From a bacterium (GTDB lineage: Bacteria; Patescibacteriota; Andersenbacteria; UBA10190), in NCBI GenBank assembly GCA_030698495.1, contig JAUYKA010000018.1, positions 1 to 57,310 of the forward strand: a DNA stretch of 57,310 nt, written 5' to 3'. The notes beneath the pieces were generated by a model. It was given only the letters and a program-made list of their open reading frames with translations. It was not told the origin of the DNA and searched no databases. This document shows positions 13,050 through 40,699 of the stretch, in pieces. The translations under genes were made by a program, and so were the position numbers. The stretch's first letter is position 1; each line of letters starts with the position of its first letter.

Positions 13050-14399
13050 TTATACTCCTCTTGTTATCTTTTTAAACGCCCCATCCAGTCTTTCCAGCGT
13101 CCGAGCTTTCCCTAAAACTGCAGCCGTCTCAAACGGACCCGGCGAATTTTCCCGTCCTGTCAACGCTACCCGCAACGGCCACAACGTGTTGCCGCGCTTT
13201 AACCCCTTCTCTTCAACCCAACTCATTAGCGTGTCTTTTAAAGTTTGTTCCGTCCAGACATTATCACCTAATTCATCCAAAAAATCCTTTAACTGTCCGA
13301 TTATCTCTTTCGTTTCCTTCTCGTTACTGTCCCGCCACACCAGAAGACTTGGTGAATAATCACCCGGCCAGTCCGGACTAAAAAAAGACACTCCCGACGC
13401 CAGCTCTTCTAAGGTAGCCGCCCTGGCTTGCTCTACCGCTAAGGCGTCCCGCCAATACCGTTCGTCATCTATAATGTAACCCGCTTTTTTCAACCACGGA
13501 CGGGCTTTTTCCAGCAATTCCTCCCGCGTCAATTGCCGCAAATAATGTTTATTAAATGCCCCCAATTTTGTTTCATCAAAAATAGCCCCGCCTTTTTGTA
13601 CGCCCGCCAGTTCAAACTTTTCTCGAAGCTGGTCGTGGCTGAAAAACTCCTCGTCACTCTTGGGATTCCAACCCAGCAATGCCAAATAATTAAGCATAGC
13701 TTCCGGTAAAAACCCCCGATCACGATACGCCAGTAAGTTTACTTCACCGGTTCGTTTAGAAAGCTTACGTCTGCTTTTATCCAGCAATAAAGGTAAATGA
13801 GCATATTGCGGCATCGGCAAACCCAATGCCCGCTGCAGCAAAATATGCCGGGCGGTATTAGTCAAGTGATCTTCTCCTCGGATAACATGACTGATTGCTT
13901 GCGCCGCGTCATCTACAACCACCGCCAAATGAAAAACGGGATCGTCCAGAGAACGGGCAATCACAAAATCACCCCCCCATGTTTCTGGATTTACTGTAAC
14001 CTCTCCCCTTATTAAATCATTAAAAACGACATCTTCCGGCGGCACTCTCAGCCTGATCGCTTCACCATCTTCAACCGGATAAGCGCTGTCTTGTGCCAAT
14101 AATTTTTCCAAAGCACCCCGATACATTGCGCCGCGCTCCGATTGTCGGTATGGACCGAAATCGCCGCCGATATCCGGTCCTTCGTCCCAAGTCAAACCCA
14201 ACCAGCGCAGGCCGTCCAAAATTATCTGCTCATATTCTTTTTTGCTCCTTTCCCTATCGGTATCCTCAATTCTGACAATAAACTTGCCGCCCGTCTTACG
14301 GGCAAAAAGCTCGTTAAACAATGCTGTTCTGGCTGTGCCTATATGCATTAAGCCGGTTGGACTGGGAGCGATTCTCGTGCGAATCATTTTATCATCCAT
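13050..14399 (-). CDS. gltX: Glutamate--tRNA ligase
   Basis: RIAPSPTGLMHIG, RIEDTD, IRGEDH and KLSKR. Confidence 0.97.
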   Translation of the reverse strand: MDDKMIRTRIAPSPTGLMHIGTARTALFNELFARKTGGKFIVRIEDTDRERSKKEYEQIILDGLRWLGLTWDEGPDIGGDFGPYRQSERGAMYRGALEKLLAQDSAYPVEDGEAIRLRVPPEDVVFNDLIRGEVTVNPETWGGDFVIARSLDDPVFHLAVVVDDAAQAISHVIRGEDHLTNTARHILLQRALGLPMPQYAHLPLLLDKSRRKLSKRTGEVNLLAYRDRGFLPEAMLNYLALLGWNPKSDEEFFSHDQLREKFELAGVQKGGAIFDETKLGAFNKHYLRQLTREELLEKARPWLKKAGYIIDDERYWRDALAVEQARAATLEELASGVSFFSPDWPGDYSPSLLVWRDSNEKETKEIIGQLKDFLDELGDNVWTEQTLKDTLMSWVEEKGLKRGNTLWPLRVALTGRENSPGPFETAAVLGKARTLERLDGAFKKITRGV

Positions 14400-29444: not shown

Positions 29445-30398
29445 ATGGAGGACGCTCCTTCTTTTATTGAAGTCAGCAAAATATACGCCGAATATTCTGC
29501 GGGCAATCGCAGCCTAAAACGGCTGCTTGGCCGTGCGCCGCAAACTCACTCTGTCCTGCGCGACTTAAGCTTTAAATTATCCATCGGTGATCAAGTTACG
29601 CTGTTTGGCCTGCCCGGCTCCGGTAAAACCACTCTGCTGCGCCTTTTGGCCGGCATTATCCAGCCTTCCTCCGGCAAGCTCACCGTTAACGGCCAGCCGC
29701 CATTGTCATACAAAGATTTAGCCGCCGGTTATGTGTCAATCGAAGAATCCGAACCGGCCGGCGAAACCGTCCACGATATTCTCTACACTTTCGGCCGCAC
29801 TCACGACATCACCAGTCTGCCAGCGCGCTTGGGAGAAGTGGCGGAACAACTCGGTTTATCACCGGCCCTCAATCGTCCCGCTCGCACCCTGGCTACTACT
29901 GAACGTCTTCGGCTGAACCTGGCGCGCGCCGCTCTTTCCGATACCCCCCTATTACTCTTGGATGACACTGCCGACCAATTAGGAACAGACTTTATCCGTG
30001 AAATATTAACCGGCGTATTTGACGGCCGTACCGCCATTGTCGCCACCCGCTTCGCTTCAACCGCCGAACGACTCGACCAGCCTATCTTTATTTTACACCA
30101 AGCTACCCTAGCTCAATCCGGCACACGTGATGAAATGGCCGCTACCGTCGGCTGTCAGCGGGTCTTGGAAGTTTGGATAGAAGGCCTGCGCTATGATCTA
30201 CTGCGCCAGCTAAAAAAGCATGCCGGCGTAACTTCCGTCCGCCTCCTACCCACCACCCAATTTTCCGGACAAAAACTGCGTGTTGTCTTACGCTCCTCCC
30301 GCTACCTGCCATCTTTCTACGACCTAATCAGTCAAGCGCCGCTGGTGCGCGTCGAAGAACTCCCGCCGTCGCTAAACGAAATAATCAGTCGTTTGTAA
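29445..30398 (+). CDS. ABC transporter ATP-binding-like protein with degenerate motifs
   Basis: Walker A GLPGSGKT intact; signature LATTE, Walker B LLLLDD and H-loop ATRF are atypical. Confidence 0.82.
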   Translation: MEDAPSFIEVSKIYAEYSAGNRSLKRLLGRAPQTHSVLRDLSFKLSIGDQVTLFGLPGSGKTTLLRLLAGIIQPSSGKLTVNGQPPLSYKDLAAGYVSIEESEPAGETVHDILYTFGRTHDITSLPARLGEVAEQLGLSPALNRPARTLATTERLRLNLARAALSDTPLLLLDDTADQLGTDFIREILTGVFDGRTAIVATRFASTAERLDQPIFILHQATLAQSGTRDEMAATVGCQRVLEVWIEGLRYDLLRQLKKHAGVTSVRLLPTTQFSGQKLRVVLRSSRYLPSFYDLISQAPLVRVEELPPSLNEIISRL

Positions 30399-38822: not shown

Positions 38823-39299
38823 TTAATTCAACGCCCAAATGGCGTAATTTAGATAACTGGCAAAACTAACCCAAAGCAAATAAGGCAACAACAAATACGC
38901 CGCCGGTTTGGAAATCCTATAAAACAACACAATCGTCCATACAATCGCCAACCACATCGCCGCGATTTCCAGCAGTGCCAATCCGGGATTTTGCATGCCA
39001 AAGAAAATAATCGACCAGACAGAATTCAACACCAACTGAACCGCAAACACCCCTACTGCTTTTTTCACATCGCTTCTCTGCCAGCCTCTCTGCCACACCA
39101 ACCAAACTGCGATACCCATCAGCAAATACAACGTCGTCCATACCGGACCAAAAATCCAATTAGGCGGCGCCAGCACCGGCCTGATCAAAGTGGCATACCA
39201 ATTAGGTATCGCCGAGGTGGTAAAAAAAGCCCCCAAAATCCCCGCGCCTTCGCAAATAATTACCGCAACAACCAACCCAATCCATTTATTCACTAACAT
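38823..39299 (-). CDS. tspO: TspO/MBR tryptophan-rich sensory protein
   Basis: WY..L..P...PPNWIFGPVWTTLYLLMG; LN..WS.IFF; PYLLWVSFA. Confidence 0.95.
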   Translation of the reverse strand: MLVNKWIGLVVAVIICEGAGILGAFFTTSAIPNWYATLIRPVLAPPNWIFGPVWTTLYLLMGIAVWLVWQRGWQRSDVKKAVGVFAVQLVLNSVWSIIFFGMQNPGLALLEIAAMWLAIVWTIVLFYRISKPAAYLLLPYLLWVSFASYLNYAIWALN

Positions 39300-39338
39300 A
39301 CAAACATTTTAACACGATATAGACAATACGGATACAAC

Positions 39339-39569
39339 GGAGCGGGTAACGGGAATCGCCCACTAATATAGCGGGCGCCCGCCGTACTGGCGGGCGAACC
39401 CAATACTGTGAGCGGGATACCAGAATCGAACTGGCGCATCCAGCTTGGGAAGCTGGCGTACTGCCACTGTACTAATCCCGCATAGAGCTACTGTCCTTAC
39501 CTTGCCTTGTCCGCCGAAGCTTTAGCGAAGGCGGAGGAAGGTCGTGTTCTACCACTGAACCATACCCGC
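39339..39569 (-). pseudogene. Interrupted tRNA-Gly gene carrying palindromic insertions and a nested intact tRNA
   Basis: 5' part GCGGGTATGGTTCAGTGGTAGAACACGACCTTCC (39569-39536); 3' part GGGTTCG[..]ATTCCCGTTACCCGCTCC; acceptor stem GCGGGTA/TACCCGC is perfect. Confidence 0.8.
39411..39481 (-). tRNA. tRNA-Gly(CCC)
   Basis: GCGGGAT/ATCCCGC; CCAGC-TTCCCAA-GCTGG; GCCAG-TTCGATT-CTGGT. Confidence 0.95.
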
Positions 39570-39636
39570 CTACGCTTTCAGCTACGGCGGGCAATGCCCG
39601 CTTGCTGAACCAACTGTCCGGCTGTATTTACTTAAT

Positions 39637-40206
39637 TTACTGTACTCGCTGTATAACTCGTCCTTCCTGCCTATCCCACTTTAAATGAAACGGCAGTACC
39701 ACGACAAGTCTTTCTTTCGCTAGCTGCTGATATAAATCATCCGGCGTTTCCGCCGAGCGCTGTTGGCGCAAACTCTCTTGCTCCAAATATGGCAACAGGA
39801 CATAGTTGTCATAATCGTCCAGTATTAATCCGGTTGTATCCTTAATCTGATTTTCTTGACTCACATTTAATATTTCCGTGCGGTATCTTTCCGCGTCAGC
39901 TAAGGTGACATTCTGGCGCAGTTGCGCGTAATGCGTCAGATGCTGGCGTGCCAGCGTGTTTAATGCGTCAGCCGCCGTTGGTATCTCTTGTCCGGTTTTT
40001 TCCGCAAACGTCTGCTGAATTTTTTCTTCCTTCAGCCACCGCGTTGAACTGACGCAGCCCCTGGTTGTACACACTACCGGCCAAGGAAAATATTCCGCCA
40101 ACACGTTTCCGGCCGGATCGCTCCCAGCCAAAACCCATGCCCAGCCGCCAAGCAGCAGTAATAAAAAGACTAATATTACCAACCCTGTTATCAATAGCCA
40201 GCGCAT
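39637..40206 (-). CDS. Membrane-anchored protein, possibly SurA/PrsA N-domain-like
   Basis: N-terminal TM, ...FPWPV.. and a helical domain. Confidence 0.65.
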   Translation of the reverse strand: MRWLLITGLVILVFLLLLLGGWAWVLAGSDPAGNVLAEYFPWPVVCTTRGCVSSTRWLKEEKIQQTFAEKTGQEIPTAADALNTLARQHLTHYAQLRQNVTLADAERYRTEILNVSQENQIKDTTGLILDDYDNYVLLPYLEQESLRQQRSAETPDDLYQQLAKERLVVVLPFHLKWDRQEGRVIQRVQ

Positions 40207-40618: not shown

Positions 40619-40699
40619 AGTAAATTAAGTAAATACAGTAAATTAAGTAAATACAGTAGCTGTATTTACTGTACTCGCTGAGTTCACTGTATTTACTGT
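40619..40699. repeat. Head-to-head 9-bp tandem arrays (CTGTATTTA family)
   Basis: agtaaatta-agtaaatac x2 followed by inverted ctgtattta-ctgtactcg-ctgagttca-ctgtattta. Confidence 0.8.

Follow-up and report, generated by a model that had tools for sequence, protein, structure and literature searches.

An intact tRNA-Gly(CCC) gene nested within a hairpin-interrupted allele of the same gene, and comparable interrupted tRNA copies, in an Andersenbacteria genome and its relatives

Results

Anatomy of the nested tRNA-Gly(CCC) locus

We examined a locus within a 57,310-nucleotide (nt) stretch of DNA from a bacterium of the Patescibacteriota (Andersenbacteria; UBA10190), comprising positions 1 to 57,310 of contig JAUYKA010000018.1 in assembly GCA_030698495.1; this whole stretch is referred to as the window. 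At the locus an intact tRNA-Gly(CCC) gene lies between the two ends of a second tRNA-Gly(CCC) gene that is interrupted by short palindromes. Read along the minus strand from 39601 to 39340, the order is two small hairpins, the first 34 nt of the outer tRNA gene, a 31-nt palindrome, 23 nt of intervening sequence, the inner tRNA gene, a 14-nt spacer, a 38-nt double hairpin, and the 3' end of the outer gene; the stretch inserted between the outer parts amounts to 85 nt plus the hairpins. An earlier reading made from the DNA letters alone (the sequence-only reading) had described an anticodon-loop insert, a whole tRNA bracketed by direct repeats, a pair of T-loop hairpins and a further element abutting the 5' end, and all four of these features were found where it had placed them.

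The 5' part of the outer gene (39536-39569, minus strand) starts with GCGGGTA and contains the acceptor 5' strand, the D arm, the 5' strand of the anticodon stem and the TTCC of the anticodon loop; we call this allele type O. Its 34 nt agree at 33 of 34 positions with an intact tRNA-Gly(CCC) gene of a relative (L018; E 6e-11). The 3' part (39340-39358, minus strand) carries the remainder of the T loop, the T stem 3' strand, the acceptor 3' strand and the discriminator base, and the outer 3' end (39339-39358) is identical at 20 of 20 positions to intact type O genes of relatives (E 6e-5). The outer acceptor strands are complementary at 7 of 7 positions. Because both ends agree so closely with intact genes of relatives (33/34 and 20/20), the outer frame is not a chance match.

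Directly after the TTCC, within the outer anticodon loop, stands the 31-nt mini-palindrome (39505-39535; consensus orientation on the plus strand). It belongs to a dispersed family, termed hairpin-a, and was the best match in the genome to the nhmmer profile of that family (39504-39537, E 3e-10); relatives carry copies of the palindrome at 90-100% identity. The 23 nt between this hairpin and the inner tRNA (39482-39504, minus strand) begin with CAAGGT, continue as a degenerate stretch, and end with ACAGTA plus 7 bases; comparison by eye with intact type O alleles suggests that the CAAGGT is the remainder of the outer anticodon loop and stem. The inner tRNA-Gly(CCC) (39411-39481, minus strand), an allele starting with GCGGGAT that we call type I, is complete, its own acceptor strands matching each other. 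ARAGORN called it Gly(ccc), and it scored 66.1 bits against a cut-off of 29 bits for Rfam family RF00005; it shows 84-87% identity to tRNA-Gly(CCC) of other relatives. The ACAGTA direct repeats that bracket it lie at 39404-39409 and 39489-39494.

The spacer on the far side (39397-39410, minus strand) holds the second ACAGTA copy followed by TTGGGTT, which supplies the outer T stem with its 5' strand and opens the T loop; the T stem so formed has three G-C pairs, one G-U pair and one mismatch. The double-hairpin module of 38 nt (39359-39396, minus strand) occupies the outer T loop with the layout TTCG, hairpin, CG, hairpin, CG, ATT. The layout is as first described, while the proposal that each hairpin is followed by a duplicated CG has an alternative, i.e., the CG pairs can also be read as extensions of both hairpin stems. 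At the other end of the locus, the element abutting the outer gene (39564-39601, minus strand) consists of a small GC hairpin and a second hairpin-a copy (nhmmer 39594-39564, E 4e-4), the 3' arm of which overlaps the outer tRNA's first bases. The same overlapping hairpin abuts intact tRNA-Gly genes in two relatives (L012/L087 and L015) and the tRNA-Gly(GCC) gene of this genome.

Recognition of the outer gene before and after excision

As it stands, the outer gene fails the RF00005 cut-off. ARAGORN called only the inner gene, the Rfam scan of 39200-39750 gave no tRNA match to the native outer gene at E≤10, and the outer gene was absent among the 46 Infernal tRNA matches at E≤1 in the whole genome. 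When the interruptions were removed exactly as the sequence-only reading had specified, ARAGORN called a 77-nt tRNA-Gly(ccc) with perfect acceptor (7/7) and D (4/4) stems, an anticodon stem with three Watson-Crick pairs, one mismatch in the T stem and a long variable region; the perfect acceptor and D stems and the imperfect anticodon stem had been noted from the letters. The exact limits of excision were varied over 19,008 combinations, of which ARAGORN called 8,179 a tRNA, 153 of these as Gly(ccc).

The interruptions had been held to be neither introns nor classical integrative elements, and the searches bear this out. No intron family was matched at E≤10 in the Rfam scan of 39200-39750, and the only integrase-family (Phage_integrase) gene of the genome lies on another contig (C12, 7685-8248), far from the interrupted loci. 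Matches in the Rfam scan to P26 (21.1 bits), anti-hemB (19.7 bits) and CRISPR-DR9 (13.5 bits) were below their own cut-offs and were set aside as chance resemblance of GC hairpins. No open reading frame (ORF) for a GIY-YIG nuclease, of the kind described below for relatives, is present in 39300-39640.

Two alleles alternate at the orthologous locus

The orthologous locus was recognised by the upstream neighbour, an ORF of 189 amino acids (aa) (39637-40206, minus strand) that matched no Pfam family and whose homologues stand directly upstream of tRNA-Gly(CCC) in relatives. A contig scan with an alignment of this ORF found 17 named records (a scan with the single protein gave none), and in many relatives the ORF is accompanied by a DivIC-like gene and a PDZ protein gene. 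In 14 of the 17 records a tRNA-Gly(CCC) gene lies within 700 nt downstream of the ORF homologue: ten are type O (one of these assignments rests on the 5' motif), three are type I, and one is neither. An uninterrupted candidate target, i.e., an intact type O gene, is present at 10 of 17 orthologous loci. The downstream neighbour in the window, a TspO/MBR family gene (38823-39299, minus strand; PF03073, E 6e-53), is not conserved at this position; alignment of the TspO-adjacent locus in relatives, which the sequence-only reading had recommended, was uninformative, there being no tRNA within 1.5 kb of TspO at the TspO loci of 3 relatives.

GIY-YIG ORFs or their remnants stand at 3 of the 17 orthologous loci (L132, L134, and a remnant at L129). 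At two of the three type I loci the type I gene is followed by a GIY-YIG ORF (80 aa) or by a 22-aa remnant. The third GIY-YIG-bearing locus (L060/L134) is the mirror image of the window: the 5' half of a type I gene breaks off after the same TTCC, and beyond it come two hairpins, then a GIY-YIG ORF of 88 aa and an intact type O gene.

The ACAGTA repeats allow two accounts. The sequence AGTA followed by GGGTTCG is the natural variable-region/T-stem sequence of one intact type O allele (L055), which fits and would favour the simple-insertion model of the sequence-only reading, where ACAGTA is a target duplication. The near-identical left flank at a second nest, on contig C1 (below), suggests that ACAGTA may have come by co-conversion from another module-bearing copy. 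Both here and in one relative, the sequence TATTGGGTT is found 10 nt downstream of the type I gene; about two chance occurrences of any 9-mer are expected in the sequence available, and the match is therefore kept as a hint only.

Matches to the outer 5' half in G023 (C23) and G007 (C50) were considered as type O remnants and rejected, both being tRNA-Gly(GCC) genes. The tRNA-Gly(CCC) genes of L010 (G024) and L118 (G045) look chimeric, with a type I acceptor and D arm joined to type O anticodon and T arms; at L118 a GIY-YIG ORF follows 74 nt after the tRNA gene. Close to the upstream neighbour in the window there is a separate dispersed repeat of 9-nt units containing ACAG (39622-39654 and 40634-40656; at least 12 copies in the genome); one copy overlaps the stop codon of the 189-aa ORF, and contig depth spikes there.

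Other interrupted tRNA copies in the same genome

The 38-nt double-hairpin module occurs at three places in this genome. Contig C1 contains a second nest (29935-30175), in which the ends of one Val(TAC) allele, intact in L093 and L098, enclose an intact tRNA-Val(TAC) gene of another allele; the outer gene of this nest has a 31-nt hairpin of the hairpin-a family in the D-arm region and the double-hairpin module in the T loop. On contig C12 (20440-20550) the T-loop module is joined to a tRNA-His 3' end whose allele is alive in relative G009, and G009 (L017) carries dead 3' pieces resembling the live His allele of this genome. A fourth interrupted locus, on contig C32 (13482-13715), is a tRNA-Glu(CTC) copy truncated at its 3' end, which carries a hairpin-a of 31 nt following position 34 and, in the T loop, a variant double hairpin; an intact tRNA-Glu(CTC) follows 34 nt later and is identical to the broken copy over the 54 nt that the latter retains. 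None of these three other loci has a GIY-YIG ORF.

A partial tRNA copy of another form was seen on C1, where 29 nt of the tRNA-Pro(CGG) 3' end are duplicated (13913-13941) 73 nt downstream of the intact gene, with a copy of the hairpin-a family directly before the duplicate.

The mini-hairpin families

In the hairpin-a family a core of 15 nt is conserved, the GC arms vary and keep their complementarity through compensating changes, and one end carries CTTG. Searched with a profile derived from 24 relatives' copies, this genome gave 46 matches at E≤0.05, with the anticodon-loop insert of the window at the top, and hairpin-a copies were present at all 20 places sampled from relatives. The family occurs in either orientation, forms tandem arrays, and in one relative includes a nested copy. 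Of the 70 matches at E≤10, thirteen are no more than 250 nt away from a tRNA gene, a count that is uncontrolled for intergenic bias. Fifteen of the 46 matches are inside open frames of at least 150 codons, to which each adds 10-11 residues in peptides of the type P-A/V-x-A-K-A-x-x-G-K. The hosts include a YchF-like GTPase, a PrmC-like methyltransferase and a TruB-like protein, and the PrmC-like gene of a relative is likewise affected; one tandem array lies inside a 524-codon frame (copies in these housekeeping genes and the array are at C6:20258-20286, C8:21236-21309, C33:3177-3271 and C13:92742-92842).

Transposases of the Y1 type (RAYT/IS200-like) were considered as movers of the hairpins. 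Y1_Tnp matches were found for three ORFs of about 220 aa (C30:215-487, C9:9061-9297 and C36:26052-26288), and the candidates were rejected because the palindromes beside them are of other kinds and belong neither to hairpin-a nor to the T-loop module. A different repeat, about 90 nt long and built around a 17-nt GC hairpin whose flanks are conserved, has no relation to the tRNA loci (copies at C9:3671, C10:3146, C10:52714, C13:1998, C23:1956, C23:3332 and C23:12519).

Interrupted tRNA copies beside GIY-YIG reading frames in relatives

Double hairpins in the T loops of tRNA remnants were found at 10 loci in 7 related genomes; the one at L106 has quite different stem sequences and the same layout. 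When these 10 are taken with the 4 in this genome, 11 of the 14 T-loop remnants adjoin an intact tRNA with the same anticodon. At three loci (L016, L042 and L064) the T-loop module is followed, about 13-22 nt on, by ORFs of 83, 91 and 85 aa, which Pfam identifies as GIY-YIG (E 4e-13, 1.5e-9 and 1.5e-12, respectively); at two of the three, the ORF runs into the 5' part of the next intact tRNA. Of the 41 genomes of the order, 35 have homologues of the GIY-YIG ORFs; GIY-YIG matches in this genome number seven.

Positions relative to tRNA genes were counted for 26 of 30 GIY-YIG loci (L125-L128 were left out). At 10 of the 26 loci the ORF is followed within 75 nt by the start of a tRNA on the same strand, and at 5 a same-strand tRNA ends no more than 160 nt before the ORF. 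An interrupted 5' copy of a tRNA lies upstream of the ORF in 9 of the 10 loci with a downstream tRNA (six of these copies were recognised by alignment, two by eye, and one is that at L114, which is the same locus as L060). The sites of interruption are the D loop (L100, L105, and C1 of this genome), the anticodon loop (the window, C32, L060, L108 and L123), and the T loop. Interrupted copies of a comparable kind, both on C32 and in relatives, have no 3' acceptor strand. A literature search, which did not cover supplementary files, returned no account of tRNA copies broken by hairpins and accompanied by GIY-YIG ORFs in these bacteria.

Assembly support and the tRNA complement of the genome

Misassembly had been raised as a concern by the sequence-only reading; contigs of two sequencing runs bridge every junction of the locus. 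One contig of run X2 spans 39100-39535 with no difference, and contigs of run X1 (39100-39491, 39443-39651 and 39625-39800) cross the junctions without differences; X1 and X2 belong to one study, and one of them may be the source sample of the window. An intact type O sequence, joining 39358 to 39536 with 19 other letters, is also present in the same runs at low depth (4.4 and 3.5, versus about 20). The runs that contain the sequence are labelled groundwater metagenomes.

The genome comprises 1.16 Mb in 37 contigs and is rated 100% complete; relatives have about 0.6-1.4 Mb. ARAGORN found 43 tRNA genes, and the same 43 exceed the Infernal cut-off. The question raised earlier, whether a tRNA-Gly(GCC) was missing, has a negative answer, as the genome has Gly tRNAs with GCC, TCC and CCC anticodons. 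A tRNA-Ser(GCT), a second tRNA-Met(CAT) and a transfer-messenger RNA (tmRNA) were not found by ARAGORN or Infernal in the 37 contigs; these may lie in gaps or be interrupted beyond recognition. A tRNA-Ile with the anticodon TAT is present at C1:40426-40498; such a tRNA is an uncommon way to read AUA in bacteria.

Discussion

A dead resident allele and its replacement

We have high confidence that the inner gene in the window is the functional replacement of a dead resident allele, represented by the outer gene. This agrees with the first of two explanations offered by the sequence-only reading, i.e., a dead tRNA that took up insertions and received a replacement with the same anticodon, for the outer gene proves to be the allele alive in most relatives and the inner gene a different one. 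The locus is neither a one-off nor a new RNA-processing pathway, and the insertions are non-random, being placed in cloverleaf loops of redundant tRNA copies that stand, in relatives, beside GIY-YIG ORFs. The locus is probably the scar of a tRNA-targeting selfish DNA, similar in behaviour to the phage T4 nuclease SegB, that would be active across this group of small-genome groundwater bacteria.

A complete element of this kind would have three parts: a tRNA copy interrupted in a cloverleaf loop (D, anticodon or T) by GC-rich mini-hairpins; an ORF of about 85 aa coding for little more than a GIY-YIG nuclease domain; and an intact tRNA with the same anticodon, which would keep the cell viable. 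By analogy with SegB, the GIY-YIG nuclease would cut tRNA genes, and repair of the break would copy the cassette and the tRNA allele linked to it into the gene that was cut. Once broken, the resident copy would be free to gather mini-hairpins from a very active dispersed family; alternatively, it would acquire the hairpins in the same event. In the window, where the nuclease ORF is absent, the incoming allele would have come to lie between the two ends of the resident, producing the nest. We infer replacement by GIY-YIG cassettes because of the fixed order of parts in relatives, the reciprocal alleles at one locus, and the precedent of SegB; for the window it would apply by extension. What we observed is the anatomy of the locus, its recurrence, the relations among the alleles, the hairpin families and the physical proximity to GIY-YIG ORFs; the activity and target of the nuclease, homing through repair, the sequence of events and the route by which the inner gene entered the outer one are parts of the proposed model.

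Several observations weigh against this account. None of the four interrupted loci in this genome has a GIY-YIG ORF, and the link of the window to a nuclease rests on the relatives. Among the 26 GIY-YIG loci counted, 11 have no same-strand tRNA on either side within the limits used. The ORFs comprise the catalytic domain only, and both their cutting of DNA and their target site are predictions. The intact tRNA beside each GIY-YIG ORF keeps a normal T loop, and simple self-immunity by disruption of the target is not evident. The live tRNA usually follows the dead copy and does not lie inside it, and the two nests depart from this order. Finally, the identity of the dead and live copies on C32 over 54 nt also fits plain duplication followed by rapid insertion of hairpins, with no nuclease.

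Alternative explanations

This last observation leads to the explanation that would dispense with the nuclease altogether: a tRNA copy became redundant by duplication or by recombination with foreign DNA and was then riddled by dispersed mini-palindromes that would insert frequently and favour loop-forming DNA, the GIY-YIG ORFs being bystanders that likewise settle next to tRNA genes. Hairpin-a is certainly abundant and mobile on its own, given its 46 matches, tandem arrays, nested copy and the 15 of 46 matches in frames, and the dead and live Glu(CTC) copies are identical save for the insertions; the lack of a nuclease ORF at all four interrupted loci of this genome points the same way. Bystanders would not, however, be expected to keep a fixed order, with the interrupted copy directly upstream in 9 of the 10 ORFs that have a tRNA just downstream and with the module ending about 13-22 nt before the start codon at three loci; nor would plain duplication give alleles that alternate reciprocally between genomes at one locus. 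We regard hairpins acting alone as unlikely, although the likeliest of the alternatives. Much less probable is the view that an integrase-borne element entered the tRNA at the anticodon or T loop and was later deleted almost entirely, leaving remains of its att sites. These two loops are the usual sublocations of integrases in tRNA genes, and the break points coincide with them; the 29-nt 3' duplicate of tRNA-Pro(CGG) on C1 also resembles a displaced att piece. On the other hand, the sole integrase-family gene is on C12 and far from all interrupted loci, the duplicated piece is usually a 5' part located upstream, which is the opposite of integrase polarity, and the inner gene is complete rather than a chimera of a host 5' part and an element 3' part.

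We attach very little weight to a functional outer gene, the transcript of which would fold by way of the outer acceptor, D and T stems, from which the inner tRNA would be cut by RNase P and RNase Z and whose halves would serve as a split or processed tRNA-like RNA, or from which the hairpins would be removed by an activity not yet known. This corresponds to the second explanation of the sequence-only reading, a precursor processed in an unknown way, which found no support. The intact acceptor (7/7) and D (4/4) stems would suit such a gene, as would the near-constancy of its ends (33/34 and 20/20) beside a degenerate middle; against it are the anticodon stem reduced to three Watson-Crick pairs and the T stem mismatch, the loss of the 3' acceptor strand from comparable copies in relatives and on C32, the intact same-anticodon tRNA beside 11 of 14 T-loop cases, the presence of the same hairpin family, in either orientation, inside protein-coding genes, and the fact that all three Gly anticodons are already served. 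An assembly artefact, in which a chimeric contig was built from two strains with different tRNA-Gly(CCC) alleles, seems to us the most remote of these explanations. The intact type O sequence at low depth in the sample (4.4 and 3.5 versus about 20) and the repeat-rich nature of the region are what one might expect of it, but single contigs cross the junctions without difference (X2, 39100-39535; X1, 39443-39651), and the same architecture occurs on three other contigs and in independent genomes.

A bolder extension of the selfish-DNA account, which we consider doubtful, is that the GIY-YIG proteins of about 85 aa are structure-guided nucleases that would recognise the cloverleaf fold of tRNA genes at the DNA level and cut within the loops. 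The D-, anticodon- and T-loop sites would then be accounted for, as would the CG after each T-loop hairpin, which could be a duplicated 2-nt overhang, and the mini-hairpins nested in the loops of others. If so, the nuclease would both mobilise the mini-hairpins and drive the continuing turnover of tRNA alleles between lineages, each nuclease travelling with the tRNA allele that replaces the one destroyed, and the nested tRNA would be the direct product of an undescribed mobile system in candidate-phyla bacteria.

Relation to known systems

Fungal mitochondrial genomes, such as that of Allomyces, contain mobile endonuclease ORFs that bring along a substitute for part of the host gene, the resident part persisting as a pseudogene. 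The arrangement here is similar in that an endonuclease gene would travel with a functional replacement of the disrupted gene while the resident is left as a fragment; it differs in that the mitochondrial cases concern protein-coding genes and 3' ends, whereas the present ones concern entire tRNA genes, with fragments located upstream or on both sides. Integrative elements, which target tRNA genes at the anticodon or T loop, leave displaced partial copies; the two sublocations and the partial copies beside an intact gene are shared with them, whereas the absence of an integrase nearby, the usual duplication of the 5' part, and inserts of tens to a few hundred bases are not.

Mini-palindromic elements that enter genes are known as the Rickettsia palindromic elements, the small dispersed repeats of cyanobacteria, and the double-hairpin elements and GC clusters of fungal mitochondria. 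The hairpins described here resemble these in being GC-rich, tens of bases long, present in many copies, nested or in tandem, in frame in protein genes, and inserted in RNA genes; they differ in their lengths of about 31 and 38 nt, their location in tRNA cloverleaf loops, and their linkage to GIY-YIG ORFs, with no transposase identified. Group I introns interrupt bacterial tRNA genes in the anticodon loop, and archaea have split and intron-containing tRNAs. These too are loop-interrupted tRNA genes, but in our case no intron family was matched, the inserts are too short for ribozymes, and an intact copy is nearly always alongside.

The closest parallel is SegB, which the published account describes as a free-standing GIY-YIG homing endonuclease, encoded by a 687-bp fragment within the tRNA cluster of phage T4, that cuts tRNA genes at their 3' end at a site containing a conserved 11-bp T-loop motif; acting between co-infecting phages, it passes on its own gene along with adjacent tRNA genes, which displace the markers of the recipient (PMC2330249). 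As with SegB so described, a GIY-YIG nuclease gene is lodged among tRNA genes. Unlike that far larger protein, the ORFs considered here, of 83-91 aa, comprise the catalytic domain only, are found in cellular genomes, and have a predicted activity; also unlike the SegB system as set out in that account, a hairpin-interrupted tRNA copy precedes the ORF, and whole tRNA alleles appear to be swapped.

Significance

Few sequences in any genome are as conserved as tRNA genes. The bacteria considered here have genomes of about 1 Mb with one copy of most tRNAs, yet their tRNA genes are destroyed, duplicated and swapped, often enough for many fresh scars to be seen. In metagenome-assembled genomes, tRNA counts and gene calls can go wrong where remnants and hairpin insertions of this kind occur. 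If the GIY-YIG ORFs are the agents, they would be a minimal cellular counterpart of the phage nuclease SegB and a source of compact nucleases with tRNA-gene specificity, and their spread would offer an explanation for the patchy distribution of tRNA alleles in candidate-phyla bacteria.

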